A stretch of 57,721 bases of DNA, from IMG/VR virus record IMGVR_UViG_3300033153_005042, positions 1 to 57,721 of that record. One strand, written 5' to 3'. The translations under genes were made by a program, and so were the position numbers. Of the stretch, positions 14,465 through 28,700 are shown piece by piece. The notes below the pieces were generated by a model. That model worked only from the letters and a program-made list of their open reading frames with translations, ran no database searches and was not told the DNA's origin. The DNA comes from a virus. Lineage: Duplodnaviria; Caudoviricetes. The first letter of the stretch is position 1. Each line of letters opens with the position of its first letter.

Positions 14465-14483
14465 AATAATCTCCTATCTTATA

Positions 14484-14791: not shown

Positions 14792-14807
14792 TGCAAGTCT
14801 CATACCA
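14792..14807 (-). promoter_or_regulatory. sigma54-type -24/-12 element
   Basis: TGGTATGAGACTTGCA. Confidence 0.65.
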
Positions 14808-15072: not shown

Positions 15073-15364
15073 AAATAACCTTTGGCAATTCTTGTTGTAC
15101 TATTTTTGTACACTCCGTAGTAATCCTATTCTCGTAATAATTAGAGTAAGTTGACTTACCTTTTAATGATACGTACTCAATGGTATATAACCAATCGTAT
15201 ACTGATCTTACAGGTGCTTTTACTTTACTTCTACTACTCTTTTGTAACATTGTTTTAAACTCTTTGTCAACTATTTTAAACAGTTTGTTTTTTTCGTCTT
15301 GTACAAAATAGTCTCCAACTTTGTATAACGCTTTAGTTTGTTCTTTCTGGGTGTTATTATTCAT
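15065..15364 (-). CDS. SH3-like protein with divergent tag
   Basis: KALYKVGDY...QELPKVIYD. Confidence 0.65.
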   Translation of the reverse strand: MNNNTQKEQTKALYKVGDYFVQDEKNKLFKIVDKEFKTMLQKSSRSKVKAPVRSVYDWLYTIEYVSLKGKSTYSNYYENRITTECTKIVQQELPKVIYD

Positions 15365-15385
15365 AGTATTTCCTCTACCTTAAGT

Positions 15386-15583
15386 TTAATGTACTGTAGC
15401 TGGCTCATAGCTATCAAAATCGAAAATATCTGACATTTTTACTTCAATCTGACACTCTACTTCTTCTAACTCAGTTCTATAGTTTTCAATGTCAGAGCCT
15501 TCGGCCTCTATTAACAGATAGTTAATATCTTCAGCTCTCTGTTGTAGTGAAGCTAGCTCAATTTGTAATTCCTCTAAAATCAT
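15386..15583 (-). CDS. Acidic coiled-coil mini-protein
   Basis: Start refined to MILEEL after GGAG. Confidence 0.6.
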   Translation of the reverse strand: MILEELQIELASLQQRAEDINYLLIEAEGSDIENYRTELEEVECQIEVKMSDIFDFDSYEPATVH

Positions 15584-15630
15584 AATATCTCCAAAAAGTA
15601 AGGTAGCTTTATTACTACTGTTATTATATA

Positions 15631-15646
15631 TGCAACGTTCGTGCCA
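15631..15646 (-). promoter_or_regulatory. sigma54-type -24/-12 element
   Basis: TGGCACGAACGTTGCA, full match to TGGCACG-N4-TTGCA. Confidence 0.8.
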
Positions 15647-15647
15647 A

Positions 15648-15914
15648 CTACTCTCCATAAATAACATCAGTTAACTCTGAGGCATGGATCAACCAATTAC
15701 AGCTGAACCAAAAGTCAAAATTGCGTGGGTGTTTGGTGTTAGCTGTTCTACAAAAACGTACGGAGTTGCGCTTGACCAGCTCGGTGTGTCCAATTGTTTG
15801 TATAGTGTTGTGGTACCCATCCATATCTTTATTCCACACAGGCTCCAACCAAGAGTTATGAATTGGTTTGCGTACTAGTACTCTATCTCCAACTTTGTAT
15901 AACGCTTTAGGCAT
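15648..15914 (-). CDS. SH3-like mini-protein with tag (KPK..W..M subfamily)
   Basis: KVGDRVLVRKP...ASELTDVIYGE. Confidence 0.72.
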   Translation of the reverse strand: MPKALYKVGDRVLVRKPIHNSWLEPVWNKDMDGYHNTIQTIGHTELVKRNSVRFCRTANTKHPRNFDFWFSCNWLIHASELTDVIYGE

Positions 15915-16119
15915 CCTCGCTCCCATCAGTGCTTGTGTCAGACTTAGCTTTTAGCTCGCCTAACAAGGCTCTAATTCTCTCTAAGCTTTCTTGTACTCTC
16001 CGCTGTCTGGTAGGAAAGTCGTCACCTCTATCTATCTTTACTGGATCTCGTTTCCTTACTAGTAGTTCCTTCTCTGTGACTTTTCGTTTGTATTCTTCCA
16101 AGCTCACTACGTTTGACAT
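15907..16119 (-). CDS. Hypothetical protein
   Basis: Starts MSNVVSLEEYK. Confidence 0.6.
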   Translation of the reverse strand: MSNVVSLEEYKRKVTEKELLVRKRDPVKIDRGDDFPTRQRRVQESLERIRALLGELKAKSDTSTDGSEDA

Positions 16120-16208
16120 AATAGGTATCCTCAAATAATTTCGTTAATTTACTGTCCAATGATTTAAAATTCTCTTTAAACCACTTCCTAAATTCATCTT
16201 GATTCATA

Positions 16209-16418
16209 TCAGTCCTCATAAATAGCCTCTCCTAGCTCTCCTAGCGGTTGTATATCGGACATGTGATAATACCAATCACCACTAATAGTTGCCACTAAAA
16301 CGTCAGACTTACCTATAAATTCGATAGTTCCGATCGTTCCGATTAAATACGTATTATCAAGCCCATAATTATAACCACTCACAATTATAACTCGTTGACC
16401 TTTTTTATATTTTTTCAT
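16209..16418 (-). CDS. KOW/SH3-like mini-protein with tag
   Basis: KKGQRVIIVSG...PLGELGEAIYED. Confidence 0.75.
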   Translation of the reverse strand: MKKYKKGQRVIIVSGYNYGLDNTYLIGTIGTIEFIGKSDVLVATISGDWYYHMSDIQPLGELGEAIYED

Positions 16419-16561
16419 CCTAATAACTTTTTAGACACTTTGTCTATTTTATCATTTACGTTTCTTATTAAGGAGTCAATAGTTGTTTTTTGTTTGATTA
16501 AGGATTCTTTCTCCTTCTTTAGTTCTTGCAATTCTTGTACCAGTTTTAGTGTATTACTCAT
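16415..16561 (-). CDS. 48-aa coiled-coil mini-protein
   Basis: Manual translation MSNTLKLVQELQELKKEK...; fills the gap and is coupled at both ends. Confidence 0.55.
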   Translation of the reverse strand: MSNTLKLVQELQELKKEKESLIKQKTTIDSLIRNVNDKIDKVSKKLLG

Positions 16562-16766
16562 AGATAGCCTTTCCTAGTTCTGACAACGGAGCCATTTCAA
16601 ACTCTTTCCATACTAAAATATCACCATTAAACATCCGAACCTGCCAATCTGGATAGAAATTATCGATTATAATTCCGCCAGTACCTACATAAAAGTCATA
16701 GTATTTTGAACATCCGTTCAGTATTATTAATACTTCGTCACCTTTTAAAAACATTGATTCCCTCAT
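16554..16766 (-). CDS. KOW/SH3-like mini-protein with tag
   Basis: KGDEVLII...PLSELGKAIYE. Confidence 0.75.
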   Translation of the reverse strand: MRESMFLKGDEVLIILNGCSKYYDFYVGTGGIIIDNFYPDWQVRMFNGDILVWKEFEMAPLSELGKAIYE

Positions 16767-16869
16767 AACGTATTACTTGACTTAAGTAGTCAAATAGTGT
16801 ACCCTAACATTAAGTTTATAATCTGAACAACTAAGTTCTTACCTTATAGGAAGATTATAAACTTAGGGA

Positions 16870-17181
16870 TTAAATACTAAGTACGTCTAAAAACACGGCA
16901 GCCTCTAAAGAAGACAGTTTTCTGTGAGTAGTGTCAATAATACAACACTCTTCACTCTTCCTTTTACCTAGCTTCTCAGACCATAATTGGTAGCTTGTTC
17001 CACCGCCACCTAACAGAACTAAAACTCTTTTAATTTCTAGTATGTTAGGATTTTTGACGTTGTTTAATCCTTTAGAGGAACACCTAACAATAAAATCACC
17101 TACCTCAAATGAGGGCGTATACTCGCCGCCCAACCTAATCTCGGCAATTACTTCTTTGGTTGTTTTTGGAGCTTTGATCAT
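16870..17181 (-). CDS. SH3-like protein, DSLEY-type tail variant
   Basis: FEVGDFIVR...LSSLEAAVF. Confidence 0.6.
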   Translation of the reverse strand: MIKAPKTTKEVIAEIRLGGEYTPSFEVGDFIVRCSSKGLNNVKNPNILEIKRVLVLLGGGGTSYQLWSEKLGKRKSEECCIIDTTHRKLSSLEAAVFLDVLSI

Positions 17182-17183
17182 TA

Positions 17184-17342
17184 TTACCCTTTCTTCAGTT
17201 TAGAGTTCTTTGTAGAACTTGGTAATACTAATGCAATACCTATACCAACTCTTTTGACTGCCCTACAGTTAATACAAACGTTGTTTAGGTATACTGATGG
17301 ATGTTTGTTGTTACAGTTATTACAAACTTCGTAAATATTCAT
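17184..17342 (-). CDS. 52-aa CxxC-x12-CxxC zinc-finger-like protein
   Basis: Manual translation MNIYEVCNNC...CINC; GGAG RBS. Confidence 0.55.
   Translation of the reverse strand: MNIYEVCNNCNNKHPSVYLNNVCINCRAVKRVGIGIALVLPSSTKNSKLKKG
17232..17247 (-). promoter_or_regulatory. sigma54-type -24/-12 element
   Basis: TGGTATAGGTATTGCA about 50 bp before 17181. Confidence 0.6.
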
Positions 17343-17350
17343 AATATCTC

Positions 17351-17632
17351 CTATAAATATATAGCATTAGCCATATCTGTTATATATTCGTCGCAAAATT
17401 GCTCAAAAGTTACTGTTGCTGGGTCGTCCTGAAGAGCCTCTGGGCTAGCGCCTGATGAGAACGTTACATCAAAATCTGACCACCCCTCACCTTTTTTATA
17501 GGCGAATAACGTCGCAGCTTCTTCATACTTAACACTAGGAGCTACTCGAAAGCCCATCAACTTCAATATAGGAAGTACTACTAAGTGTCCATCCATCGGC
17601 AGATTAGTTATAATGAATTCGTACTTACTCAC
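17351..17632 (-). CDS. Small protein with tag (YE-hhh-D/N family)
   Basis: YEFIITNLP...ITDMANAIYL. Confidence 0.68.
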   Translation of the reverse strand: MSKYEFIITNLPMDGHLVVLPILKLMGFRVAPSVKYEEAATLFAYKKGEGWSDFDVTFSSGASPEALQDDPATVTFEQFCDEYITDMANAIYL

Positions 17633-17976
17633 AAACCCTCCCCAACTTCACAGTCTATCTCTACTTTTGTACGAGCTAACCTATTCTCCAAGGCATTCCG
17701 ATCAGCCTCAGACTCATCTGCATGAGTGCTGTAGGAACCTCCAACATACATATTTACATATAGTGTCTTTTTAATCCTTGGGAGCACTTCTACTAAGTCG
17801 TCGGAGTCTACACCTTCTGGATTATCAGTATAACAAGAACCATTAGAACGCCACCTCTCTACATCCGCACCTATAGCACCATGTACTGTATATACATCAT
17901 GCTTTACGTCTACAGCGTAGATTGTTACGTCAGCTCCAGCTCTTGTCTTATACTTTTTATCCATTGAAATTTTCAT
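17629..17976 (-). CDS. Hypothetical protein (KYxTRxG family), paralog of 27044-27250
   Basis: KKYKTRAGADVTI vs TKYTTRDGTEVLI. Confidence 0.65.
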   Translation of the reverse strand: MKISMDKKYKTRAGADVTIYAVDVKHDVYTVHGAIGADVERWRSNGSCYTDNPEGVDSDDLVEVLPRIKKTLYVNMYVGGSYSTHADESEADRNALENRLARTKVEIDCEVGEGL

Positions 17977-18188
17977 AGTCCTGTTTCTCCTATATTTAAG
18001 AAGTTACTAACTGCCTCTAGTTGTTGGTCAACAGCGATATTTAGAGCTACCACATCCGCTGGAGTAAGTAGTTTAGTGTCTAGACAGCGTATCTCAATGA
18101 AATTAAATGCTCCACTAATACCCTTATCAAACACAAGCTCCTTAGCTGCTTGTGTGGCTGTCATGGCTCTACCGTTGTACTTAATCAT
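17973..18188 (-). CDS. Hypothetical protein
   Basis: Coupled ORF. Confidence 0.55.
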   Translation of the reverse strand: MIKYNGRAMTATQAAKELVFDKGISGAFNFIEIRCLDTKLLTPADVVALNIAVDQQLEAVSNFLNIGETGL

Positions 18189-18387
18189 GCCCTACCTCAC
18201 TTAAGATTGTTTCCAAGCTATAGCCGCATAATTCTATAAAGATATTATCTAGCTTAACCTTGTCTAAGGAATTTTCATACATATATTTAATGTTACAATC
18301 TGCCTTTGATGAATAACTATCGTCACTAGCTATGTAATCCATCACTATTGTTCTAATACTACTCATGTCAGTGATCTCCCAAATCAA
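18181..18387 (-). CDS. Hypothetical protein
   Basis: Coupled ORF. Confidence 0.55.
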   Translation of the reverse strand: MIWEITDMSSIRTIVMDYIASDDSYSSKADCNIKYMYENSLDKVKLDNIFIELCGYSLETILSEVGHD

Positions 18388-18673
18388 GGTTGCCTATAAT
18401 TTGCATACACCTGCTTATTTCTTCAACAACTTCAGTGTGCGTATACTCTTTGTTTATCGCATCGTCACCAAACACTTGCTCAAACACTTGCTCTTGAAAC
18501 AGTTTGCTTTGCTTTGCCTCTCGTTTCAATTTCCTTATAGCTTTTAGTAGATCCTTACCATCATACTCCCCACCCTTATAACTGCCTCGCTTAAGGACTA
18601 GATTAAATACGCTAGTAATTAGCTCTAGTTCTGCTTGTAGTTCGTCCTCGTCATTAAATCCTATGTAACTCAT
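18368..18673 (-). CDS. Hypothetical protein
   Basis: 101 aa with GGAG RBS. Confidence 0.6.
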   Translation of the reverse strand: MSYIGFNDEDELQAELELITSVFNLVLKRGSYKGGEYDGKDLLKAIRKLKREAKQSKLFQEQVFEQVFGDDAINKEYTHTEVVEEISRCMQIIGNLDLGDH

Positions 18674-18681
18674 ATGTTCTC

Positions 18682-18951
18682 CTAAATGTAATAGTTACCC
18701 AATTCAGTTACTAAACCTTTTAACTGGTACGTCTCGTATACTAACTTAGCTCTATCGTGTATCTCTGACATAACATCCTTAGGCGGCCAGCCCTCAAACG
18801 GCTGCCAAATATTCTCTATAATTAGCTCATCTTGCTCTTCTTCCGACAACTCAAAGAAATTGTTAGGCAAATCCCCAGACAAATAGCTACCAGAAGCCTC
18901 TAACCATGCGTCAATCTCTAATTGAGTCATTCCGTATTCATTCTTGATCAT
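18682..18951 (-). CDS. Acidic protein with degenerate tag
   Basis: Ends VTELGNYYI. Confidence 0.6.
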   Translation of the reverse strand: MIKNEYGMTQLEIDAWLEASGSYLSGDLPNNFFELSEEEQDELIIENIWQPFEGWPPKDVMSEIHDRAKLVYETYQLKGLVTELGNYYI

Positions 18952-18978
18952 AATATCATCCTTTCTATTAATGTTATA

Positions 18979-18994
18979 TGCAATAGTAGTGCCA
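18979..18994 (-). promoter_or_regulatory. sigma54-type -24/-12 element
   Basis: TGGCACTACTATTGCA. Confidence 0.78.
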
Positions 18995-18996
18995 AA

Positions 18997-19209
18997 CTAC
19001 TCGTATAGAGCTGACCACAATGCACCACAAAGCGTGTAATTCTCACTAAAAGTTTCAAAATGAAACCAGTCTGTACAAGTTCCTGCCCAATGAAGGCCTT
19101 CAGGATCACTGAGTATATCAAAACTAATAATATCGTCTACTACCTTAATAACCTTAACAATATCCTTATCTACACAGTCAATGTATATATTACCTACTAT
19201 TATGTCCAT
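18997..19209 (-). CDS. SH3-like mini-protein with tag (KD.VKV..DP..W subfamily)
   Basis: Ends GALWSALYE. Confidence 0.7.
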   Translation of the reverse strand: MDIIVGNIYIDCVDKDIVKVIKVVDDIISFDILSDPEGLHWAGTCTDWFHFETFSENYTLCGALWSALYE

Positions 19210-19444
19210 TGTTGCTCCCAACTCTTAACAAATATTCCAAAGAATCTTCCTTTAGTTTTTTTGCATTATACATATACCACCCCTTCGAACTTATAGTAAA
19301 AAGAGAATAGTCGCCACTCTTACTCCACAAACATTTGCAATGAATGTGAAATATATTATCCGCACTAGCTTCTAGTTTAAGTAGCTTATAAATTAAGTAC
19401 TCACCTTCAGCATTAACAACATATATGTCTCCTACTTTAAACAC
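19190..19444 (-). CDS. SH3-like mini-protein, DSLEY-type tail
   Basis: GTG start after GGAGG; FKVGDIY...KEDSLEYLL. Confidence 0.62.
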   Translation of the reverse strand: MFKVGDIYVVNAEGEYLIYKLLKLEASADNIFHIHCKCLWSKSGDYSLFTISSKGWYMYNAKKLKEDSLEYLLRVGSNNGHNSR

Positions 19445-19472
19445 AACACCTCCAAAAGTTACCATGACTACC

Positions 19473-19599
19473 CTAATAGTACAAAGCTTTAGAAAGATTA
19501 CCCTCAGGAATAATAACACAATCTTTGTTCGGTATACACAACAGCATTACCTCTCATCTTAACTTTATCTCCAACTTTAATCGCTCGTTCAATCTCCAT
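19473..19599 (-). pseudogene. Internally deleted/frameshifted tagged mini-gene
   Basis: One frame gives MEIERAIKVGDKVKM and stops at codon 32; a second frame gives ...IIPEGNLSKALYY*. Confidence 0.6.
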
Positions 19600-19801
19600 A
19601 AATAACCTCCGCTAACTCTCCTAAAGGAGTATACCAAAGAGAGAAGTTTTGTGAAGTCATGTAAGTGTTTTTAGTGTTGTCCCAAACCGAATGAGGATCT
19701 AAAATTACCTCAAAGAAAATCTCATCACTTCTTATTTTAGCGACCTTAACAATGTCCTTATCGTCTAAGTCAGTATAAATGCCACCTACTATTATGTTCA
19801 T
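19589..19801 (-). CDS. SH3-like mini-protein with tag (KD.VKV..DP..W subfamily)
   Basis: Ends PLGELAEVIYGD. Confidence 0.72.
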   Translation of the reverse strand: MNIIVGGIYTDLDDKDIVKVAKIRSDEIFFEVILDPHSVWDNTKNTYMTSQNFSLWYTPLGELAEVIYGD

Positions 19802-19809
19802 TATTACTC

Positions 19810-20028
19810 CTATAAGTACAAAGCTTCTGTTAGTTTGCCACAAATAACGTAATCACGTAGTATACACCCACCGTACCACCAACCACTATCACTACCCTTC
19901 CACAAACCATTAGGATCTTTAATTATATCAAATTCAACCTCATCATCAGTTATCTTAGTAATCTTGATAACATCTCTATCCTTAGGATCAATATAAATAC
20001 TGCCTACTATTATTATGTTCATTATCAC
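19810..20028 (-). CDS. SH3-like mini-protein with tag (KD.VKV..DP..W subfamily)
   Basis: Ends CGKLTEALYL. Confidence 0.72.
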   Translation of the reverse strand: MIMNIIIVGSIYIDPKDRDVIKITKITDDEVEFDIIKDPNGLWKGSDSGWWYGGCILRDYVICGKLTEALYL

Positions 20029-20063
20029 TCCGAATGTTATATTAGCGTATTGCTAGGTATTAA

Positions 20064-20079
20064 TGCAAGTAGTATACCA
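20064..20079 (-). promoter_or_regulatory. sigma54-type -24/-12 element
   Basis: TGGTATACTACTTGCA. Confidence 0.65.
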
Positions 20080-20128
20080 ATAATAGAATTATAGTATGTT
20101 ATACTAAGGTATTGCTATAGGTAGGTTA

Positions 20129-20353
20129 TCAATCACAGTACAAAGACTCACTAAGACCGCCAGCTTTGACTAAGCCGTCCTCAAAAAACCAATACCTAAC
20201 AACCTCATCACCAGTTATCTTAGTAATCTTTATTTTAACCCCATATCCGACAGAAAAAGAAGTAGAGTCAAAGACAACTCCGTAAAGACTTTTATACTGA
20301 CCTTTAATAACGAGTACCTTATCACCTACCTTAAATTTGCAACTACTCTCCAT
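20129..20353 (-). CDS. KOW-like mini-protein with tag
   Basis: FKVGDKVLVIKGQYK...GGLSESLYCD. Confidence 0.72.
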   Translation of the reverse strand: MESSCKFKVGDKVLVIKGQYKSLYGVVFDSTSFSVGYGVKIKITKITGDEVVRYWFFEDGLVKAGGLSESLYCD

Positions 20354-20573
20354 AAATAGCCTCCGATAACTCTCCTACAGGTGTTAACCACAGTCTAGAA
20401 AAGTAGAAACCACTTCCGACACGAAACGTAATATCACCTTCCTCATCAATGAATCCAATAACTTGTATCGTATTGTGTTCCAGATCCATTGCCTCAATCC
20501 ACCTACAAGTTAGAGCACCCAATTTTTTAGGTTTACGTACTAATACTCTCTGTCCCACCTTAAACTTACTCAT
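20343..20573 (-). CDS. SH3-like mini-protein with tag (KPK..W..M subfamily)
   Basis: Ends PVGELSEAIYGE. Confidence 0.75.
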   Translation of the reverse strand: MSKFKVGQRVLVRKPKKLGALTCRWIEAMDLEHNTIQVIGFIDEEGDITFRVGSGFYFSRLWLTPVGELSEAIYGE

Positions 20574-20778
20574 AAATAGCCTCCGCTAACTCTCCTAAAG
20601 ATACGTAACTACTTAAAGCCTTAGCATCAGCCCAATGACCAAAAAGACCACCACTCCACAACATCAAATCATCTTTAAGTACTTCAAACACAATAACATC
20701 AGCCATAATACTAGTAACCTTAACAATGTCCTTATCGTCTAAGTTAGTATAAATACCGCCTACTTTAAACTTACTCAT
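20566..20778 (-). CDS. SH3-like mini-protein with tag (KD.VKV subfamily)
   Basis: Ends SLGELAEAIYE. Confidence 0.75.
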   Translation of the reverse strand: MSKFKVGGIYTNLDDKDIVKVTSIMADVIVFEVLKDDLMLWSGGLFGHWADAKALSSYVSLGELAEAIYE

Positions 20779-20971
20779 AAATAGCCTCCGTTAAATTACC
20801 GATAGGAGCGATATAACTTCTATCCATCCAAACCCTATTATCATACTCTTCCTCTTCGTAGGGATCTAAGTCCACCAACACCAATAACCTATTAGTAGAG
20901 AATTTAATAAGCTGGGCTGTCTTACCCTTAGACAAACCCTTAACAATCAACACCTTATTACCTTTAACCAC
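20771..20971 (-). CDS. KOW-like mini-protein with tag
   Basis: KGNKVLIVKGLSKG...PIGNLTEAIYE. Confidence 0.72.
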   Translation of the reverse strand: MVKGNKVLIVKGLSKGKTAQLIKFSTNRLLVLVDLDPYEEEEYDNRVWMDRSYIAPIGNLTEAIYE

Positions 20972-21115
20972 AATTAACCCCCAAATCAGACTAGCGCACC
21001 ATGATTACCTAATATAACCATAAACAACAGTAACTAAGTAACTAACATTAGTATATACACAGTAAGAAATAATAAACATAACACTACTAGACATAATAGT
21101 CTACATAGTAGTACA

Positions 21116-21131
21116 TGCAATAATAGTACCA
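21116..21131 (-). promoter_or_regulatory. sigma54-type -24/-12 element
   Basis: TGGTACTATTATTGCA. Confidence 0.6.
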
Positions 21132-21139
21132 GTATATTG

Positions 21140-21350
21140 AGGTAGCTGTAGTATTGCTAGTTTATTACTATAGTATTGCTATAGGTAAGGTATTGTGTAG
21201 ATAGACTAAGGTATTGCTGTAGGTAGTAGGGTAGTTAGTTAGTAGTAACATGGTAGTATTGCTACTTATGATATATTGTGTATTGCTATGGTATTGCTTT
21301 ATGATAGATAAAGTATACTTGGTTATTGATAGATAGTATTATATGGTACT
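21140..21350. repeat. AT-rich non-coding tract with GTATTGCT repeats
   Basis: About six copies of GTATTGCT in a G/T-skewed tract; further copies near 20048, 20109 and 31625. Confidence 0.55.
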
Positions 21351-21559
21351 AATAGTATGGTTTACCACACTACGTATTGTGTAACCTATTGTAATCATTA
21401 GATTAATTACTAGTGTATCTTATAGGACACTGTACGGATATGGACTACGGTTTCCCTCTCATGCCCTCCCTAACCCCCGAAATCGTAAAAATACACCCCT
21501 TTTCTCTCAAAAAACCACTAAACTTTACTAAAAATAACCTTTTAACTTTATTTCAGAAA

Positions 21560-21793
21560 CTATAACCACTTTGTCGGACAATGTAAGGCATATTCTAAGG
21601 AATCTTTGGTCAATACTTGATAATGATTCTCAAAATGTCTACAGGATAGAGTGTACGTTCTATCGCTCTCCTTTAGTTTGACTTTGTATTGCTTGTACCG
21701 AGTACCATCTACCTCGTCTATTATTAATCTCAAAACAACATCGCCATCACCAAGATAACAAATTATAACGTCACCAACCTTAAATAAACTCAC
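21560..21793 (-). CDS. SH3-like mini-protein, DSLEY-type tail
   Basis: FKVGDVI...KDSLEYALH. Confidence 0.7.
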   Translation of the reverse strand: MSLFKVGDVIICYLGDGDVVLRLIIDEVDGTRYKQYKVKLKESDRTYTLSCRHFENHYQVLTKDSLEYALHCPTKWL

Positions 21794-21804
21794 AATTCAC
21801 CCTC

Positions 21805-22038
21805 CTAAAAAAATATAGCGTATTCTAACGAGTCTTCCTTAACTACGCAGTAACATAAGTCTAAATAACTACACTCCAAAGAAAAAGGCTCGCCATTGCC
21901 TACAACCTTACAGAAATTCTTGTCCTGAACACTGTACACTCCTAATACCTTTCTCACCCTCCTACTACGGTTACTCCCGTACTTTTCCGCATTATCCAGC
22001 TTCTCTAATAAAATGTCCCCAACCTTGTATTTACTCAT
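21805..22038 (-). CDS. SH3-like mini-protein, DSLEY-type tail
   Basis: YKVGDIL...KEDSLEYAIFF. Confidence 0.72.
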   Translation of the reverse strand: MSKYKVGDILLEKLDNAEKYGSNRSRRVRKVLGVYSVQDKNFCKVVGNGEPFSLECSYLDLCYCVVKEDSLEYAIFF

Positions 22039-22049
22039 TGATTCCCCCT

Positions 22050-22283
22050 CTAAGGATAAAATATAGCGTATTCTAACGAGTCTCGCTCTAATACTCGATA
22101 CCTAGTGTCGACAAACCTTTTTTCCATAGAATACCTTTTCGGCGACTCAATACAGACACCAACAGCAGTAAATTTCACAAGCAGGACATAAGAGTAATCA
22201 AAAACTGTTACTATCTCCCTAATTAACATTCCATTGTAGCCTTCCCTAATTATTAAATCACCTACGTTAAAACTAGTTTCCAT
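22050..22283 (-). CDS. SH3-like mini-protein, DSLEY-type tail
   Basis: FNVGDLI...RDSLEYAIFYP. Confidence 0.72.
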   Translation of the reverse strand: METSFNVGDLIIREGYNGMLIREIVTVFDYSYVLLVKFTAVGVCIESPKRYSMEKRFVDTRYRVLERDSLEYAIFYP

Positions 22284-22569
22284 ACAATGCCCCAAATAAT
22301 TCACCGTTAACCAGTTCAATAAACTCGTTGTACGTGTAAGTCTTGTTAGCGAGTACGCCTAAACTATCACTACCACCTTGAAGAGGAATTCCATGAGCGC
22401 TTACTACTACTAAACTACTCTTAGAGTAAACCTGCACCTTAAAGTTGTAAGTAATACTACTCACGTCACCTTTAGCTAGGTTGTGTTTAAATAACAGCTC
22501 CAATACTTCCATCTTACTATCGTGATTAGGTATATCCTTAATAAGCATTTCATACACAGTTCTACTCAT
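22273..22569 (-). CDS. Small protein with tag (YE-hhh-D/N family)
   Basis: YEMLIKDIP...NGELFGALYGN. Confidence 0.68.
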   Translation of the reverse strand: MSRTVYEMLIKDIPNHDSKMEVLELLFKHNLAKGDVSSITYNFKVQVYSKSSLVVVSAHGIPLQGGSDSLGVLANKTYTYNEFIELVNGELFGALYGN

Positions 22570-22828
22570 AAATAGCCCTCCCAAGCTCTCCTAAGGGTAT
22601 TAAGCATAGTTCATCTACGTAGTTAAGTTCATCTTCCTTAGTTAGTATATGATAGTCATACACAGCATCCTTCCCGTCATGATTACCTAACTTAACTATA
22701 GTGTGTATAGTATTAGGATTATTATCAGCTCTTAAGTGTGTACCGTAGTTGTGACTTATACCTACCGTGAAGTTCACCATTACTTTGTCCCCCACCTTAA
22801 ACTTATGGGGGGTAGTTCTCTTAGTCAT
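22562..22828 (-). CDS. SH3-like mini-protein with tag
   Basis: FKVGDKVMV...PLGELGRAIYE. Confidence 0.75.
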   Translation of the reverse strand: MTKRTTPHKFKVGDKVMVNFTVGISHNYGTHLRADNNPNTIHTIVKLGNHDGKDAVYDYHILTKEDELNYVDELCLIPLGELGRAIYE

Positions 22829-22890
22829 ACCTGTCCTCGCTGTTACTATTACCCTATATAGGGATTCAAAATGGATGTGTTGCCGTTTCG

Positions 22891-23130
22891 TTAAACGAAT
22901 ATAGCGTACTCTAAGCTGTCTTTAGGCATTAACCTACTGTTCAGGTAGTATTCTCCCTCAATTAGAAAGTTCCAGTCGCCAAGTACTTCTAGGCCTATAT
23001 AACCTTCATAACGTAGTATAGCAACCTGCATAACCTCCTTAGAGATAGCAATCACTTTATATACTATGAAATAGCCCTCTTTATCAGGGTTGGTGTACCT
23101 ATAAACTTCTCCTACATGAGGCTCACGCAC
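22891..23130 (-). CDS. SH3-like mini-protein, DSLEY-type tail
   Basis: HVGEVYRY...KDSLEYAIFV. Confidence 0.7.
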   Translation of the reverse strand: MREPHVGEVYRYTNPDKEGYFIVYKVIAISKEVMQVAILRYEGYIGLEVLGDWNFLIEGEYYLNSRLMPKDSLEYAIFV

Positions 23131-23175
23131 TGTACTACTCCTAAAATATTAACCATAACACTCACCAAATACTAC

Positions 23176-23191
23176 TGCAAGCTCTGTGCCA
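23176..23191 (-). promoter_or_regulatory. sigma54-type -24/-12 element
   Basis: TGGCACAGAGCTTGCA at the head of the left-arm operons. Confidence 0.78.
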
Positions 23192-23680
23192 AAATGAAAT
23201 TCGATTTAATTCCGTTTCGTAAATGAAAATGGATTTCATTCCGTTTCGTAGACATTGACTACTTTTCCAGAATTTTTTCCGTTCGGATGATTCGGATGAT
23301 TCGGACGCAGGATTGCCTTTGGCATAGAAATTGCGTTAGCAAGAACCGTGCCAGTTCCGCCCATAGCAAGAACCGTGCCAGCTGGAAACTGTCCAGAAAC
23401 TTGACACCTGTAAACCTTCAAGAACCGTGCCAGCTAAAAAACCCAGTCCGGATAGGCAGTTACAGTACGGGTGTTAGAATCCTGACACGTTGCGAAAATG
23501 TACATTGTAACCAACTGATATCACTACTAATTTTCGGGTGACCAACGATTAGACACCTTTGGTTAAGGATTAGACACTAGCAAGAATCGTGCCAGCTAAT
23601 TCTCTAGTCCGGATAGGGGGGTTACTGGTATGGCTATAGTCCGTATAAGTACTTACAGCTATGGCATAAGTGTTGCATAT
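23191..23680. repeat. Repeat-dense divergent control region
   Basis: CAAGAAyCGTGCCAG x4 (23338, 23365, 23417, 23579), TTCGGAYG x3, GTCCGGATAGG x2, IHF-like site, AAATGAAAATG boxes. Confidence 0.8.
23662..23677 (+). promoter_or_regulatory. sigma54-type -24/-12 element
   Basis: TGGCATAAGTGTTGCA about 40 bp before the Gp88-like start. Confidence 0.75.
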
Positions 23681-23717
23681 AGGTATATACAGCAATGCAG
23701 CTGTAGGAGGTAACAAT

Positions 23718-24380
23718 ATGACAAAACTACTAGTAAAGAATGCTAAGATTGCTAAGAGTAGTAACGATACAACTACTATATATAACTTCGGAATTCCAGC
23801 ATTTCAGGCAGCAAGCGGTTTGAGTACTTGCCCATTAGCTGGACAATGCTCTAAAGGCTGTTATGCGCAAGCTGGTGCCTACGCTTGGAGCAATGTTAAG
23901 CAAGCCTATGAATTCAGACTTAAGGCAAGCCAGCAAGCTAATTTTGCTGCTATGGTTCAATTAGAGCTTAACCCTAAAATAAAGACAGCAATCAGACAAA
24001 ACAAACAGTTGACCATAAGGATTCACGATAGTGGTGATTTTTATGATCTAACTTATACCAAAAAATGGCTCAAGCTGATGCGAGACAATCCTACTGTAAA
24101 ATTCTACGCTTATACCAAAATGGTACCAATGTTTAAGGCGCTGCAAAAATCGTGCCAAATACCTGAGAATTTCACCATTATTTTCAGTGAGGGCGGCGTG
24201 ATGGATAGCATGATTCTTGCAGGAGACAGGCATAGCCGAGTGTTCCCTGATGAAAGTTCTTTAATCTCAGCAGGTTACGACAACGCTAGTAAGAATGATC
24301 TAGTAGCAATAGAAGCAGTGAGCGGTAAAATAGGCCTGATATATCACGGGGTTAAGAGTCGGGCTTGGACTACCGACTAA
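23718..24380 (+). CDS. Gp88-like protein (Cys-triad, radical-SAM-like)
   Basis: TCPLAGQCSKGCYA, IRIHDSGDFY, FYAYTK; start refined to MTKLL after GGAGG. Confidence 0.75.
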   Translation: MTKLLVKNAKIAKSSNDTTTIYNFGIPAFQAASGLSTCPLAGQCSKGCYAQAGAYAWSNVKQAYEFRLKASQQANFAAMVQLELNPKIKTAIRQNKQLTIRIHDSGDFYDLTYTKKWLKLMRDNPTVKFYAYTKMVPMFKALQKSCQIPENFTIIFSEGGVMDSMILAGDRHSRVFPDESSLISAGYDNASKNDLVAIEAVSGKIGLIYHGVKSRAWTTD

Positions 24381-24406
24381 TCCTTAGACACTATTGAGCT
24401 GGTACG

Positions 24407-24547
24407 TGCAACAACCGTGCCAGTTCTTAATTTTCGGGCATAGTCCGGATAGGCACTTACAGAATATACACCTGTCAATTCCTTATACACCATGACTACC
24501 CCTAACATACTGTTATCACTATAGCCACACTTGGCACACATACTGCA
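24407..24547 (+). promoter_or_regulatory. Intergenic module 1: reverse sigma54 site / GTCCGGATAGG / TGT-N11-ACA / IHF-like / forward sigma54
   Basis: Reverse site 24407-24422; box 24443; forward TGGCACACATACTGCA 24532-24547. Confidence 0.75.
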
Positions 24548-24575
24548 TTACTATAGATAGAAGGAGGGACTAGAT

Positions 24576-24722
24576 GTGAATATTATAGACCTAATACTTA
24601 TAGTAATAACCAGCATACTGTTTATAAGTTTTCTGTATAGGCTTCATAAGCTAGGAACTATGTTAGACAAAATAACGGAGGTATACAATGACCAACAAAG
24701 CACATTTAACAGCAATAAGTAG
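24576..24722 (+). CDS. 48-aa single-pass membrane protein
   Basis: GTG start after GGAGG; IIDLILIVITSILFISFLY. Confidence 0.5.
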   Translation: MNIIDLILIVITSILFISFLYRLHKLGTMLDKITEVYNDQQSTFNSNK

Positions 24723-25125
24723 AAATAGCCCTAGCGTACCTATGAGACGTTTAAACAAAGCAGGAAGGCTAGGAGCTAAAAGAATGCTAGACTTTGGCTG
24801 TGGTAGAGGTTTGGACGCTACAACGTACGGTCTAGACAAGTATGACCCTCATTATTACCCTGAGAAAGACTGGAAAGTAGCTAAGTATGATGTTATTACA
24901 TGTAATTATGTATTGAACGTTATACCTACTAAGGAGGAACGTACCGCAGTCATAGAGGATATTAGAAACCTGTTAACAAAAGGAGGTATTGCCTACATAA
25001 CTGTAAGAAGAGACATAAAAACACAAGGTTACACTAAGAGAGGGACATTTCAAGAAAATATAACCCTTAACCTAGCTAAACTATGGGAGAATTCTAGCTA
25101 TTGCACATACGTGTTACATTATTAA
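24688..25125 (+). CDS. Class I SAM-dependent methyltransferase
   Basis: LDFGCGRG, YDP, YDVITCNYVLNVI. Confidence 0.82.
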   Translation: MTNKAHLTAISRNSPSVPMRRLNKAGRLGAKRMLDFGCGRGLDATTYGLDKYDPHYYPEKDWKVAKYDVITCNYVLNVIPTKEERTAVIEDIRNLLTKGGIAYITVRRDIKTQGYTKRGTFQENITLNLAKLWENSSYCTYVLHY

Positions 25126-25130
25126 CCCTT

Positions 25131-25298
25131 AGCAAGAACTGTGCCAGTTATTACTGGCGCTTTCTTCTGTAGGTTGTCGTCCGGATAGGTAGTTACGTAA
25201 AGTGTCAATTTATTGTGTACAGGTGTATAATGCTTGGTCAGTTAGGTAAGGTGTAAGTACTTGATATTGCTATAGCTAGACATGGCATGGGTTGTGCA
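25131..25298 (+). promoter_or_regulatory. Intergenic module 2
   Basis: Reverse site and hairpin from 25131; GTCCGGATAGGTAGTTAC 25179; IHF consensus TAAGTACTTGATA 25254-25266; forward TGGCATGGGTTGTGCA 25283-25298. Confidence 0.78.
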
Positions 25299-25326
25299 TT
25301 ATATAATAGTGAAAGGAAGGTGATTT

Positions 25327-25578
25327 ATGCAAGTACACGGAACAATACAATGGCACGACGATAAGGGTTGGGTTACTCATGATATCGAGTACGAAGCTAC
25401 TCTAGAGATAGAGAAGAACTACGGTTGTGACGCTGATGGTAATAGAGGTATCAAGATAGCCTATATATCCGATTACGATTACGAACTACCTTATAGCGAT
25501 ATGTCAGACAAGGACAAAGCTGAAATATACGAACTAGTAGAAGAACATGCAGCAGAGCAAGAACCCTACAACATTTAA
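25327..25578 (+). CDS. Acidic hypothetical protein
   Basis: 83 aa; YGCDADGNRG motif. Confidence 0.65.
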   Translation: MQVHGTIQWHDDKGWVTHDIEYEATLEIEKNYGCDADGNRGIKIAYISDYDYELPYSDMSDKDKAEIYELVEEHAAEQEPYNI

Positions 25579-25589
25579 AAGGAGTTATT

Positions 25590-26165
25590 ATGACTAAGGC
25601 AAAAAAAGTTACTGTTATTCAACCATCTACCAATTTTGGAGGATTGTTAGATATCAAGTTAGGGATGAAAGACGTTATTGACATTATCATGCAAGAAGAG
25701 GAGGATAAACTCACTGCTGAATTAGAACAAGCTATAGTACTAGCTACACAAGCGCAAAAGAATAAGGAGGATTACATAACGGCTATGAAGAGTAAACTGG
25801 AAAAATCATTCCTAGAATTGGTAGCCGCCGCTTTTGGATTGAAAGAACAGGATTGTACCGCTAGTAACTATTCTTATAGAGATAATATTGAAATATCCGT
25901 AACTCATGATAAATCTGACCTTTCTGTAAATAAAAGGTTCCCTTACACCAAAAAATACCTCAAAGGCAGAATCAAGTTAGGTAAAATTTGCAACGATTTA
26001 CAGGACATCGTCTGGCGGTGTGAGCAACGTGTGACACAACTCAATAAGAAATCGAGGAAAGCTAGGACTTTGATCGTCAAACAATTACTTGCCAATACGC
26101 CCGAAGGTGCTACTTTATTACAGCAAGTTACCAAAGCTAAACAATTATTAATAACCCCTAAATAA
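25590..26165 (+). CDS. Coiled-coil hypothetical protein
   Basis: 191 aa, GGAG RBS. Confidence 0.7.
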   Translation: MTKAKKVTVIQPSTNFGGLLDIKLGMKDVIDIIMQEEEDKLTAELEQAIVLATQAQKNKEDYITAMKSKLEKSFLELVAAAFGLKEQDCTASNYSYRDNIEISVTHDKSDLSVNKRFPYTKKYLKGRIKLGKICNDLQDIVWRCEQRVTQLNKKSRKARTLIVKQLLANTPEGATLLQQVTKAKQLLITPK

Positions 26166-26169
26166 CCTT

Positions 26170-26340
26170 AGCAAGAAGTATGCCAGTTAACGCTGGTATA
26201 TTTTCTACAACCTACTGTCCGGACTATGACTACCTTATCCGTAGTGTCTACCATTTTTAGACACCTGACCAATCCTTAAACAGTCTTGCTTACCCTAACT
26301 AGCTGATATTACTAGCACAGGGCTTGGCACACAATCTGCA
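26170..26340 (+). promoter_or_regulatory. Intergenic module 3
   Basis: Reverse site and hairpin from 26170; GTCCGGAC 26217; IHF-like TAACTAGCTGATA; forward TGGCACACAATCTGCA 26325-26340. Confidence 0.75.
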
Positions 26341-26383
26341 TTATATATAGTACAAGGCAATCAAGCCTTATAGGAGGTTCATT

Positions 26384-26722
26384 ATGAAAGCTATTTTAAT
26401 CGACGTAGTAAAAAGGGCGGTTACTCAGATTGATATCCCAGCAGGTATCGAAGCAATCAAACAACAGCTCGGCGTTAGCTGTTTTACAGTTGTCTGTCCT
26501 TTAGACAGTTCGGACGCCGTCTATTGTGACGACGAAGGATTACTAAATAACCCACAAGATTTTTTCACCTTGGGCAATTACCCTCAGCCTATCGCTGGTA
26601 ACGGCTTAATTCTTGGTACAGATTCTGAAGGCCGCTCGGTAGACTGTGAAGCCTTGCTAGAAGATATTCAAAACGACGTTATTTTTATGGACTTGGGAGC
26701 GGTGCTCGCAAACCACGCATAA
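26384..26722 (+). CDS. DUF3846-like protein
   Basis: VYCDDEGLLN...IAGNGLILG. Confidence 0.65.
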   Translation: MKAILIDVVKRAVTQIDIPAGIEAIKQQLGVSCFTVVCPLDSSDAVYCDDEGLLNNPQDFFTLGNYPQPIAGNGLILGTDSEGRSVDCEALLEDIQNDVIFMDLGAVLANHA

Positions 26723-26728
26723 CCTCCT

Positions 26729-26898
26729 TTCAAGAAGTGTGCCAACTTTGTTGGTGCATTTCGCTTAACCTTTCATAGTCCGGACAGGTAGTTACAGGCT
26801 AGTGTCAATTTATTATATACAACTGTCAATTCCTTAGACAGATAGTCACCCAGTAACTAGGTGTTATCACTAGGTAGGGACTTGGCATACTACCTGCA
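26729..26898 (+). promoter_or_regulatory. Intergenic module 4
   Basis: Reverse site and hairpin from 26729; GTCCGGACAGGTAGTTAC 26778; TGTCAATTCCTTAGACA; IHF-like TAACTAGGTGTTA; forward TGGCATACTACCTGCA 26883-26898. Confidence 0.75.
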
Positions 26899-26924
26899 TT
26901 AGTAATAGTGAAAGGAGTACTAAC

Positions 26925-27044
26925 ATGGACAAAAGAGACATAGGCGACATCGTATTAATATTCGTACTAGTGACAGGGATCGGAACAATCGGATTCTTAG
27001 CAGCTTTAGCGACAGTAAAATTATTAAGTCTGGGAGGATACTAA
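26925..27044 (+). CDS. 39-aa membrane protein
   Basis: Manual translation MDKRDIGDIVLIFVLVTGIG...; AAGGAG RBS; stop overlaps the next ATG. Confidence 0.55.
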   Translation: MDKRDIGDIVLIFVLVTGIGTIGFLAALATVKLLSLGGY

Positions 27045-27250
27045 TGAAATTACTACCGAATACTAAGTACACCACTAGGGACGGCACTGAAGTGCTAATA
27101 ACAGACGTTAACACTGAAAATGGCACTAGTTACAAGATTACTGGTAATATTGTCGACAGCTCGGTTAAGATGTCGTGGTTGGATAACGGATCATATTTAG
27201 CCCCAACAGTTAAACACTCATTCGACATAACCCAAGGAGAGAATCCATGA
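27044..27250 (+). CDS. Hypothetical protein (KYxTRxG family)
   Basis: Paralog of 17629-17976. Confidence 0.62.
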   Translation: MKLLPNTKYTTRDGTEVLITDVNTENGTSYKITGNIVDSSVKMSWLDNGSYLAPTVKHSFDITQGENP

Positions 27251-27442
27251 CTACCTCAGAAAAACAAACAGAATACCAAGGATTAACAGATCACCCTAAG
27301 GAACGTTCAGCAAGATTAGACAGATTAAGAGCTATGAGCAAGGCTGTAACAAAGACTACAACCCCACCCCCTACAATAAACTAGGGGGGTAGTTTTACCC
27401 ATATACATATACCCTATATAACACACCACTAAGGAGATTATC

Positions 27443-27772
27443 ATGGAAGCATTCAAAAGAACAACTAAGTCCGCCTCAGGCACTAGCTTAAAAACACATA
27501 TCACAGTATCTTATCCAAAGCTTATTGAGCTATTTGGTCAACCCGACGAAGGTTGCGGTTATAAGGTCAGCGGAGAGTTCACGTTTGAGGCCTCTAATGG
27601 AGAGCTGGTGACGTTGTACGACTGGAAGAGTACCTCACTATACGACGGCCTCTCACAGTCTCCTCAGCAGCTTAGAGAGCGTACTAGCGTAGAGCTGAAT
27701 ATTGGTGGCAATAACGCTATCACAGCTCAGATATTCGCTTTATGGTTACAAGGGAGTTTAGCTACTGCGTAG
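27443..27772 (+). CDS. Phage hypothetical protein
   Basis: GTSL..I..SY..L...FG.P...KV..E...TLYDWK pattern; AAGGAG RBS. Confidence 0.68.
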   Translation: MEAFKRTTKSASGTSLKTHITVSYPKLIELFGQPDEGCGYKVSGEFTFEASNGELVTLYDWKSTSLYDGLSQSPQQLRERTSVELNIGGNNAITAQIFALWLQGSLATA

Positions 27773-27840
27773 GTGAAATGAAAATGAAATTCGATCCGTT
27801 TCCCTTTCGGTAGTGTTTTTACTGCTGGAGGGGAAAAATC

Positions 27841-27872
27841 GGTAATGAGAATGGTAATGAGAATCATTCTCA
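27841..27872. promoter_or_regulatory. Fur-box-like operator
   Basis: GGTAATGAGAATCATTCTC at 27853-27871 matches GATAATGATAATCATTATC at 16/19; perfect TGAGAAT-C-ATTCTCA; preceded by a 12-bp duplication. Confidence 0.6.
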
Positions 27873-27880
27873 AAATCGCC

Positions 27881-27986
27881 TGTGGTATTTTTGACACATG
27901 TCAAAATCCTGACATGTTAGAATCCTGACATGTTAGAATCCTGACACCCTGTCAAATTTTTTGACACTTTGACCAAATTATGGTCA
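27881..27986. repeat. Tandem TGT-N10-ACA boxes
   Basis: TGTCAAAATCCTGACA then TGTTAGAATCCTGACA x2 at 16-bp period (27899-27946), with related boxes on both sides. Confidence 0.8.
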
Positions 27987-27996
27987 CATCTATATA

Positions 27997-28042
27997 TGCA
28001 AGTACCATGCCAGCAACCCACCATAGCAATATCAACCACTTA
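27997..28042 (-). promoter_or_regulatory. sigma54-type element plus IHF site with no obvious downstream ORF
   Basis: TGGCATGGTACTTGCA (28012-27997); IHF consensus TATCAACCACTTA 28030-28042. Confidence 0.65.
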
Positions 28043-28561
28043 GCTCAAATCGACCAATCCTTAGACAGTTTGTGTATATTCTTTACACACTATCGCTTGG
28101 CCTGTTTATAGCATTAGCAAGAACCATGCCAGCGACCCAGATTTTTCTTGGTACGTATATTGCATACGTCCGACCTATCCGGATAAGCAAGTATCATGCC
28201 AACCGTAAAACATAACCTACCGTAATTACAGTAATTCGCTCCAGATCGCCGAGGAAATTTATTACATACTAGTACTAGCAAACTAGCCTAAACGCTCTAG
28301 AGGCTTTATATAGGCGTTATAGAGGCTATATTGTTCTACTATATATACCAGTTTTTGTCATGCCTAGTAAACCTGTAACCTATAGATATTACAGCGTTAT
28401 TCGGCCTCCGCAGAAATAGCCCATTTATTCTCATATTTTAACCTTGCAATATCAGAGACTTACAAGGTTTATTCACTTTTTTTTACTTTACCTCTCAAGT
28501 TATTGCACCCAATGCCGATAGGTAAGTATAACAAGAAACAAACAACAACAAAGGAGTTAAC

Positions 28562-28675
28562 ATGGTAGCGGTTTTAATGATGGTAGGAATTTTACTAGCG
28601 TTTTCAATCGGTTGCGAGCTTGACAATATCAAGCGACAAAAAAGACTTAATAGAATCTGGAATATTAACAAGTAA
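28562..28675 (+). CDS. 37-aa membrane/lipoprotein-like peptide
   Basis: AAGGAG RBS; MVAVLMMVGILLAFSIGC. Confidence 0.45.
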   Translation: MVAVLMMVGILLAFSIGCELDNIKRQKRLNRIWNINK

Positions 28676-28700
28676 TATCAACACCTTAAGGAGGTACATT

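Follow-up and report, generated by a model that had tools for sequence, protein, structure and literature searches.

The window analyzed in this study is a 57.7-kb viral contig of IMG/VR (record IMGVR_UViG_3300033153_005042; completeness ~50%) that is about half of the ~110-kb genome of an uncultured myovirus and includes genes for a large terminase, a major head protein, and a tail sheath. Its genes run leftward from ~23130, the first gene of the leftward arm occupying 22891–23130 (− strand), and rightward from 23718, the ATG of a GP88-like gene (+ strand). The genes of the right arm are separated by repeated intergenic modules and include a methyltransferase, a DUF3846 protein, and proteins of no assigned family. 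We describe here the sigma-54-type (−24/−12) sites of this region, many of which are orphans that do not stand before a gene. The early region of the phage is predicted to be run wholly on sigma-54-type promoters, and the orphan sites form a second class, better than the promoters and with a grammar of its own: reverse orientation, a fixed position after stop codons, fusion to terminators, and helical phasing to a putative operator.

Sites were scored over 14 positions against YTGGCAYRR-N3-YTGCW, the GG and GC dinucleotides being obligatory, with 200 dinucleotide shuffles as the control. The window contains 23 sites that score at least 13 (shuffle mean 0.26, maximum 2), including 12 perfect sites (shuffle mean 0.02, maximum 1). 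Fifteen of the 23 fall within 23300–28210, of which 10 are on the − strand and 5 on the +. A family of direct repeats, GCAAGAAC(C/T)GTGCCA, which is the reverse complement of CTGGCACGGTTCTTGC, has 12 copies starting at 23339, 23366, 23418, 23580, 24143, 24408, 25132, 26171, 26730, 27998, 28117, and 28187. The GG and GC dinucleotides lie 10 bp apart inside TGGCAC-N5-TTGC and, as stated in an earlier note on this DNA, two of the orphan sites (23418 and 26730) have GA instead of GC. That note listed 14 near-consensus sites, and every listed position does carry a sigma-54-type motif. Thirteen of the 14 are good sites; 28098 (+) is weak (TGGCCTGTTTATAGC), and 28149 (+) reads TGGTAC. Absent from the list is a perfect site that lies antisense within the GP88-like coding sequence (24143–24157, −); it is found by the motif scan and belongs to the repeat family.

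Fifteen sites are sense-oriented before genes. Ten of them belong to the left arm (13585 to 23177); the other five are the putative forward promoters of the right arm, which start at 23662, 24532, 25283, 26325, and 26883. Seven of these gene-serving sites, from both arms, lie 23–51 bp ahead of a co-oriented open reading frame (ORF) of at least 70 amino acids. The perfect site at 23177–23191 (−), 46 bp upstream of the first leftward gene, is a putative ordinary left-arm promoter. The ten left-arm promoters have no orphan-type sites nearby, and the motif scan found no sigma-54-type sites in the structural half of the window. Four of the five right-arm forward promoters have a weaker −12 box (CTGC or GTGC), and the orphans are the most consensus-like sigma-54-type sites of the phage. 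Among the good orphan sites within 23300–28210, 12 of 14 are on the − strand; they are paralogous copies, four of which are co-directed with the left arm. The gene-end and right-hub orphans point into the 3′ ends of + strand genes; only the 15 gene-serving sites, and perhaps also the four sites of the left hub that are directed toward the left arm, stand upstream of a gene and in its orientation. The earlier description of the orphans as not serving a gene is thus not established for these four − strand sites in 23339–23594, because they are co-directed with the leftward gene arm. A difference at −11 (A in promoters, T in orphans) was seen in the window, failed in relatives, and was dropped as a class marker. 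Two forward promoters (26324–26351 and 26882–26909) also fit, weakly, the sigma-70-type pattern TTGGCA-16-TATAGT or AATAGT, and a dual sigma-54/sigma-70-type reading of them is possible.

Junction modules and control hubs

Alignment of five right-arm intergenic regions (mean column identity 55%) reveals a repeated junction module of ~200 bp, in which a stop codon, a reverse site, a hairpin, a putative 14-bp palindromic operator, and a forward promoter precede the next gene. The conserved islands are, in order, the stop codon, CCTTA with the reverse site, the hairpin, AGTCCGGATAGGnAnTTACAG, TGTC-N9-GACA, the forward promoter, and the ribosome-binding site. The reverse sites at the four gene ends (modules M1–M4) start 27, 6, 5, and 7 nt past the stop codons and, as had been noted earlier, are aimed back into the gene. 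In M1, after the GP88-like gene, a terminator-like hairpin (24396–24426, +) with a T-rich tail (element 24396–24436) has as its 3′ arm the −24 half of the reverse site 24408–24422 (−), and its loop holds the −12 box; the operator copy is at 24443–24453 and the forward promoter (TGGCACACATACTGC then ATTACTATAG) at 24532–24546 (+). The M2 junction (25132–25170) comprises the reverse site 25132–25146 (−), 6 nt past the methyltransferase stop, and a + strand hairpin (25141–25160) with the tail TTTCTTCTGT; its operator copy is at 25179–25189 and its forward promoter at 25283–25297 (+). In the M3 junction (26171–26204), the reverse site 26171–26185 (−) lies 5 nt past the stop of a 191-amino acid gene and the + strand hairpin spans 26175–26204; the operator copy (26214–26224) is inverted with one mismatch, and the forward promoter (26325–26339, +) is 44 bp before the DUF3846 gene. 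The M4 junction (26730–26762) contains the reverse site 26730–26744 (−, a TTGA variant), 7 nt past the DUF3846 stop, and a + strand hairpin at 26734–26762, followed by an operator copy at 26778–26788 and a forward promoter at 26883–26897 (+). The forward promoters of M2 and M4 were located by the motif scan and the module alignment. Modules and hubs also share a 17-bp motif, TGWCYAATCCTTAGACA (TGTC-N9-GACA), whose ends are inverted; it occurs at 23560, 24374, 24473, 26266, 26824, and 28050, and one copy spans the GP88 stop codon.

The candidate operator is a 14-bp palindrome with the core GTCCGGATAGG and is perfect in one relative, L234 (CCTATCCGGATAGG). With at most one mismatch, GTCCGGAYAGG has seven copies in the window, all within 23446–28184 and each beside a reverse site. 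The operator center lies at about −43.5 and −42.5 of the reverse site in two left-hub units, at −50.5 after GP88, and at −62.5, −61.5, and −63.5 at the other three gene ends (M2, M3, and M4); in relatives the values are −42.5, −41.5, and −43.5; −51.5 and −52.5; and −67.5. The spacings therefore fall into classes about one helical turn apart. Relative to the forward promoters the operator lies anywhere from −63.5 to −136.5 (about −111.5 in M1), without phase. Each unit has one palindrome; its position is −42 to −67 when counted from the reverse sites and −64 to −137 when counted from the forward promoters. A search for the operator pattern in viral contigs gave seven single matches with no adjoining sigma-54 site, which we read as chance.

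The GTGCCAG half of the reverse site is one arm in all four gene-end hairpins, with z values of −2.9 (24408), −5.0 (25132), −3.0 (26171), and −4.4 (26730); the site forms the 3′ arm at 24408 and the 5′ arm at the other three positions. The earlier note had seen the TGCCA half as a hairpin stem followed by T's at the last three, which is borne out, and its list lacked 24408, which also folds. The + RNA folds are 6.0–9.6 kcal/mol more stable than the − RNA folds at all four gene ends (M1, −17.5 and −10.9; M2, −22.0 and −16.0; M3, −14.8 and −7.2; M4, −16.6 and −7.0 kcal/mol), because the partner arms use G-U pairs (CTGGTAT, GTTGGTG); in relatives the + RNA fold is the more stable in three of four cases. 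The same G-U changes destroy the mirror sigma-54 site. All four hairpins are followed by T-rich tails; a simple terminator scanner called 25141–25160 alone, the other three tails having fewer T's. At the hub sites 23580, 27998, and 28187 there is no hairpin (z about 0), and the hub face-to-face pairs, considered as hairpins, are weak (z −1.4 and −2.0); 23366 and 23418 were left out of individual folding. Since hub sites occur without a hairpin and the GCAA box stays conserved even where the loop contains it or it falls beyond the stem, selection appears to act on a sense-strand terminator hairpin and, independently, on the reverse site. Intrinsic (Rho-independent) terminators similarly have a G+C-rich stem-loop and then a T-rich tail after the stop codon, with strand specificity from G-U pairs, but here one arm is a putative protein-recognition motif that is conserved beyond the needs of pairing.

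The left control hub (23131–23717), between the leftward arm and the GP88-like gene, contains repeats, five orphan sites, two operator copies, and one forward promoter. A face-to-face pair at 23320–23353 consists of TGGCATAGAAATTGC (+), GTTA, and GCAAGAACCGTGCCA (−) and is a poor RNA hairpin (z −1.4). It is followed by a perfect reverse site at 23366–23380 (−), identified by the motif scan and the repeat family, and by two units in which a reverse site is coupled to an operator. In the first (23418–23456, −) a TTGA variant (23418–23432) precedes the operator core GTCCGGATAGG at 23446–23456, and in the second (23580–23617, −) a perfect site (23580–23594; no hairpin, z −0.13) precedes the operator at 23607–23617. 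The forward sigma-54-type promoter of the GP88-like gene was found by the motif scan at 23662–23676 (+). The right control hub (27773–28619) has the same repeat types, namely a 29-mer at 27782, 16-bp iterons at 27899–27956, and the GAGAATCATTCTC palindrome. Its reverse sites are at 27998, 28117, and 28187 and its + strand sites are the weak 28098, which is the partner in a second face-to-face pair, and 28149. The sites 28149 (+) and 28187 (−) flank an operator copy (28174–28184), which is at +5.5 of the first and −5.5 of the second. Both head-to-head pairs described earlier thus exist, and in each of them 4 nt separate TTGC from GCAA.

The two hubs share a 29-bp repeat (four copies), a 16-bp iteron, and short tandem repeats, located at 22863–23249, 23472–23497, and 27782–27956. 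The iteron, TGTTAGAATCCTGACA, has three tandem copies at 27899–27956 and one more at 23472. Pieces like the hub repeats are also present in the relatives L232 and L222. The hub repeats may represent an origin of replication or a further set of operators. Palindromes of the GAGAATGATTCTC type occur at ~27860 in the window and in L050, one of the viral contigs discussed below.

Occurrence in relatives and in unrelated viral contigs

A reverse site after GP88 is present in the relatives L144 (43% amino acid identity), L232/L233 (69%), and L234 (67%), and the site after the methyltransferase is kept in L233 (65% identical). Relatives with proteins that are 43–69% identical thus keep the reverse orientation behind the same genes. 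When the five post-GP88 elements are aligned, TGCAA and GTGCCAG do not change and the spacer does; what is conserved is therefore the sigma-54 pattern and not a fixed 16-mer. Because the copies in the window are paralogous repeats, their number alone is no proof of selection; their conservation in relatives does show selection.

L144 is part of a 105-kb genome with the same plan as the window. It has sigma-54-type sites on its leftward genes, a face-to-face pair in the divergent region, and a forward promoter before the first rightward gene. Another face-to-face pair, directly after GP88, folds into a stem of 17 bp (−30.0 kcal/mol) with a T-rich tail behind it. In the stretch of the L144 homologue that matches 24143–24157, no site stands out when the sequence is read by eye. 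L232/L233 and L234 are metagenome fragments that are closer to the window than L144. The homologous hub of L232 has three face-to-face pairs, spaced at a period of 41 bp, together with two units of reverse site plus operator, the GP88 forward promoter, the GAGAATCATTCTC palindrome, and a repeat that resembles the 29-mer. The M1 hairpin element is conserved in L233, L234, and L144. L233 and L234 have, after the GP88 block, a reverse site within a hairpin, then the palindrome, and then a forward promoter; the + and − RNA folds of these hairpins have energies of −18.9 and −7.8 (L233) and −19.6 and −13.7 kcal/mol (L234), and the L234 element follows a small ORF downstream of GP88. After the methyltransferase of L233, the reverse site is a few bases past the stop, and a nearby hairpin excludes the site and folds equally well on both strands. 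L222 has a comparable gene-free hub with − strand sites between + strand genes.

The cassette at 25327–26165, which comprises the two genes between M2 and M3, is absent in L233, where a single module separates the methyltransferase from the DUF3846 start (45% identity over 33 amino acids, pairwise E 4e-8). Because L233 has one module where the window has M2, two genes, and M3, the modules look like joints for the gain and loss of cassettes, as judged from this one comparison with a 1.8-kb fragment. Three other IMG/VR relatives of GP88, L141–L143 (54–55% identity), have 0, 1, and 0 sites and are not informative. A DNA search of isolate phages for close relatives of the early region gave no match, a 69-base hub query gave chance-level matches only, and no relative of the 191-amino acid cassette protein was found in metagenome contigs.

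The exact 16-mer occurs in 86 IMG/VR stretches. At least three core-matching sites within 400 bp are present at 27 of 85 loci, L057 (a coding repeat) having been left out; the counts for L014, L040, and L067 rest on one-mismatch matches and are likely chance. These loci have 38–65% G+C and almost no proteins in common with the window. They include tandem rows ~25 bp apart (L033) and face-to-face pairs (L028, L034/L043, L069, L071, and L080) with the same layout as 23320–23353, which is also seen in L232, and the spacers in the arrays of unrelated viral contigs are free. The occurrence of arrays and face-to-face pairs in many unrelated viral contigs over this range of G+C contents suggests that they may be a widespread route for phages to use or capture a host transcription system that requires an activator. 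Beside the arrays of L015 (5460–5800) and L050 (3760–3890) there are TGCACCA-N3-TGGTGCA palindromes, which we take to be of the NtrC type. TGGCAC-N5-TTGC is absent from all five isolates examined from the capsid group (Mallos, Xp12, V45iii, VPv62, and DLP4).

A genome-wide scan for the face-to-face TGGCAC...GTGCCA pair returned 15 stretches, seven of them in Leptospira (L313, L316, L317, L319, L322, L323, and L326) and one in a Spirochaetota metagenome-assembled genome (L314). The seven Leptospira matches are a G+C-rich repeat of ~130 nt in saprophytic genomes, often at contig ends, and none of the three loci searched (L314, L317, and L319) contains an Rfam family. The repeat loci share no protein with the window, and Leptospira was not assigned as the host on the basis of these pairs. 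Our searches of the literature outside subscription journals and supplements found no description of sigma-54 arrays or of antisense sigma-54 sites in phages; the sense promoters of Pseudomonas phage YuA were the one published case of sigma-54 use by a phage among the results.

Function of the reverse sites

The orphan sites are predicted to be genuine sigma-54-type recognition sites that are bound in the host. Their base pattern, the use of the same pattern in sense before genes, and its spread across hosts argue that they are read by host RNA polymerase containing sigma-54. The reading that we favor, though with somewhat less than even confidence, is that the reverse sites are regulated leftward or antisense promoters, arranged in divergent pairs around a shared operator. 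Each orphan would be the leftward half of a divergent sigma-54 pair around the 14-bp operator, at the cassette borders and in both hubs. Host RNA polymerase-sigma-54 would dock on the reverse site under the control of a protein that occupies the operator at a distance of one, two, or three helical turns upstream, and the site would then fire leftward. In the left hub it would feed the leftward arm as an extra promoter. At the cassette ends antisense transcripts would start at about the stop codon (near 24396, 25120, 26159, and 26718) and converge on the cassette gene, so that early accessory genes would be damped or shut off, and the repeated modules would be the joints where cassettes are gained and lost. 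The orientation is biased and kept in relatives and the operator is phased to the reverse site, which points to a directional, regulated unit. The earlier note had offered three functions, decoys that titrate host sigma-54, roadblocks between modules, and antisense promoters, and these are partly supported, since the directional evidence fits an antisense promoter or an oriented complex. A pure decoy is disfavored by the strand bias (12 of 14), the conserved orientation, and the phased operator, because titration requires neither orientation nor a phased operator; titration could still be a side effect.

Bacterial sigma-54 promoters have the same GG and GC dinucleotides 10 bp apart in YTGGCACG-N4-TTGCW and an upstream palindrome, with pairs that point away from it. 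The elements described here differ from them: they are in a phage, and their reverse member serves no gene and is aimed into the preceding gene from its 3′ end. Sigma-54-type sites that do not promote an adjacent gene have been described in Escherichia coli and Salmonella. PMC3844500 states that four of eight intragenic sites tested in Salmonella were promoters with a promiscuous activator and proposes antisense roles, and for the good intragenic and antisense sites of both species the candidate roles given in PMC4591121 and PMC3844500 are the same as those considered here: antisense RNA, interference, and decoy. In contrast to these sites, those of the window are intergenic, fixed after stop codons, fused to terminators, coupled to an operator, repeated in modules, and conserved between phages. 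A statement in PMC10914365 has phage YuA relying on sigma-70 and sigma-54. Like YuA, to which the window capsid is distantly similar, the phage is predicted to use host sigma-54 without an RNA polymerase of its own, but the YuA record annotates three sense promoters with the −24/−12 consensus, in the late region, and no arrays, pairs, or antisense sites. The PeSL cassettes of T4-like phages, as described in PMC4122927, also have repeated modules of terminator and early promoter between small variable genes. In the PeSL cassettes differences in gene content are bounded by the modules, and recombination at the modules of the window is suggested by the one comparison with L233. The modules of the window differ in being of the sigma-54 (−24/−12) type instead of early promoters for the main host sigma factor, in their size of ~200 bp, and in having an extra backward site and an operator.

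Several observations weigh against the reverse sites being promoters. An AT-rich stretch follows the GC in all 15 gene-serving sites (GC-ATTA-TATA type, mean AT 0.84), whereas the mean for the 14 orphans is 0.62, the genome value (one-sided Mann-Whitney P 1.7e-4), which suggests that the orphans are not selected for efficient opening. As a class marker this AT-rich start region is significant in the window and is only a trend in relatives (0.73 versus 0.67, P 0.09). Face-to-face sites ~20 bp apart and other dense arrays, such as are found in the hubs and in many viral contigs, cannot all fire. The single palindrome of each unit lies in the window at −42 to −63, nearer than the 80–150 bp given in PMC3844500 as the usual distance of sigma-54 enhancers. 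One operator shared between the following gene's forward promoter and the preceding gene's antisense promoter would look wasteful unless their timing differs. The copies in the window are paralogues, so that the orientation count does not represent independent events. Finally, a search of the window and of four larger relative contigs (56–100% complete, CheckV) for genes of sigma-54 or of an activator (Sigma54_activat) found none. A sub-threshold Sigma54_DBD match (13.4 bits, E 0.003) in an 83-amino acid ORF of L312 (407–658; G005:C1:8406-8657) was read as chance, because the ORF is unlike a DNA-binding domain and control genomes also gave sub-threshold matches. A gene for HU/IHF was looked for and not found. 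Public sequencing runs were likewise sought for 22800–28700, and none, of RNA or otherwise, is listed.

The main alternative, which we consider somewhat less likely, is that the sites do not transcribe and instead hold RNA polymerase-sigma-54, or sigma-54 alone, as stable closed complexes. At cassette borders these could serve as an insulator or a local store; they could also hinder read-through in an oriented manner or, after replication, act as a sponge that drains the small host sigma-54 pool and so brings both early transcription and the sigma-54 responses of the host to an end. The cores of the orphans are the best of the phage (CTGGCACGGTTCTTGC; 12 perfect) and the orphans lack the AT-rich start region of the promoters, the forward promoters of the + strand arm mostly have the weaker −12 box, and the crowding of sites in arrays is more easily accommodated by docking. 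RNA polymerase-sigma-54 sits inactive on promoters, and a decoy role for non-canonical sites is discussed in PMC4591121; PMC3844500 contains the proposal that secondary sites near promoters speed the promoter search. For plain binding, however, the strand bias, the conserved orientation, and the phased operator would be superfluous, and the ten left-arm promoters have no such sites nearby to assist them. As for the roadblock proposed earlier, PMC4591121 reports that RNA polymerase-sigma-54 at intragenic sites in E. coli did not lower expression of the overlapping genes, and each gene end already has its own terminator hairpin. A related proposal, to which we give lower probability still, accepts the control by the operator and makes the reverse sites traps that park host RNA polymerase-sigma-54 on phage DNA. 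If this were true, replication would provide hundreds to thousands of sites to soak up the small host sigma-54 pool, and the traps would time the end of the sigma-54-driven early phase of the phage and silence host sigma-54 stress responses; they would represent a DNA-encoded sponge for a host sigma factor, common to many unrelated phages.

It is improbable that selection acts at the RNA level only, on a terminator or 3′-end hairpin of the + strand message, with the sigma-54 likeness a leftover of a copied promoter, as if a post-GP88 face-to-face pair of the L144 type had decayed into a hairpin. As + RNA, all four gene-end elements do have much the stronger folds, the partner arms contain G-U pairs and track the changes of the site itself (CCAG/CTGG, CCAAC/GTTGG), and in L144 the whole pair is a stem before a T-rich tail. 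Seven orphan sites, however, are in hubs, where three have no hairpin and the two pairs are weak; the GCAA box is conserved where it does not pair; the reverse copy always stays perfect and it is the partner arm that loses the motif through T-for-C changes; and site and hairpin are separate after the L233 methyltransferase. Less probable again is a different protein, phage-encoded or another host factor, binding the motif in a hub that resembles a replication origin or partition locus: relatives share the iteron-like hub repeats (29-mers, 16-bp tandem copies, and GAGAATCATTCTC palindromes) and face-to-face pairs resemble dimer sites, but the conserved positions are exactly the sigma-54 consensus with a free spacer, the same motif stands in sense 23–51 bp before genes in both arms, its presence in contigs of 38–65% G+C with almost no shared genes indicates a universal host factor, and a sigma-54 DNA-binding domain was not found encoded in the window or the four relative contigs. 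Antisense control, docking, and titration could be told apart on the ~200-bp modules, which are defined fragments.

Other features of the window

Further proteins of the window include ERF, a PD-(D/E)XK nuclease, and an AAA_5 ATPase with a VWA partner. The capsid has a distant likeness to those of the YuA/Xp12/DLP4 phage group (~32% identity), and IMG/VR relatives have capsids that are 57–95% identical, the largest contigs being 104–117 kb (three of them 91–100% complete, CheckV). A 287-amino acid protein (7050–7913, −) contains sigma-70 region 4 and may be a sigma factor with which the phage transcribes its structural genes. The primase-polymerase-like ORF at 1–1965 (−) probably contains an intein, since a Hom_end-associated Hint domain is present at residues 421–498. 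A group I catalytic intron at 37431–37763 (+), which matches RF00028 of Rfam over the full length of the model (77.8 bits), is located in the gap between the end of the terminase ORF at 35938 and the start of an ORF at 37765.

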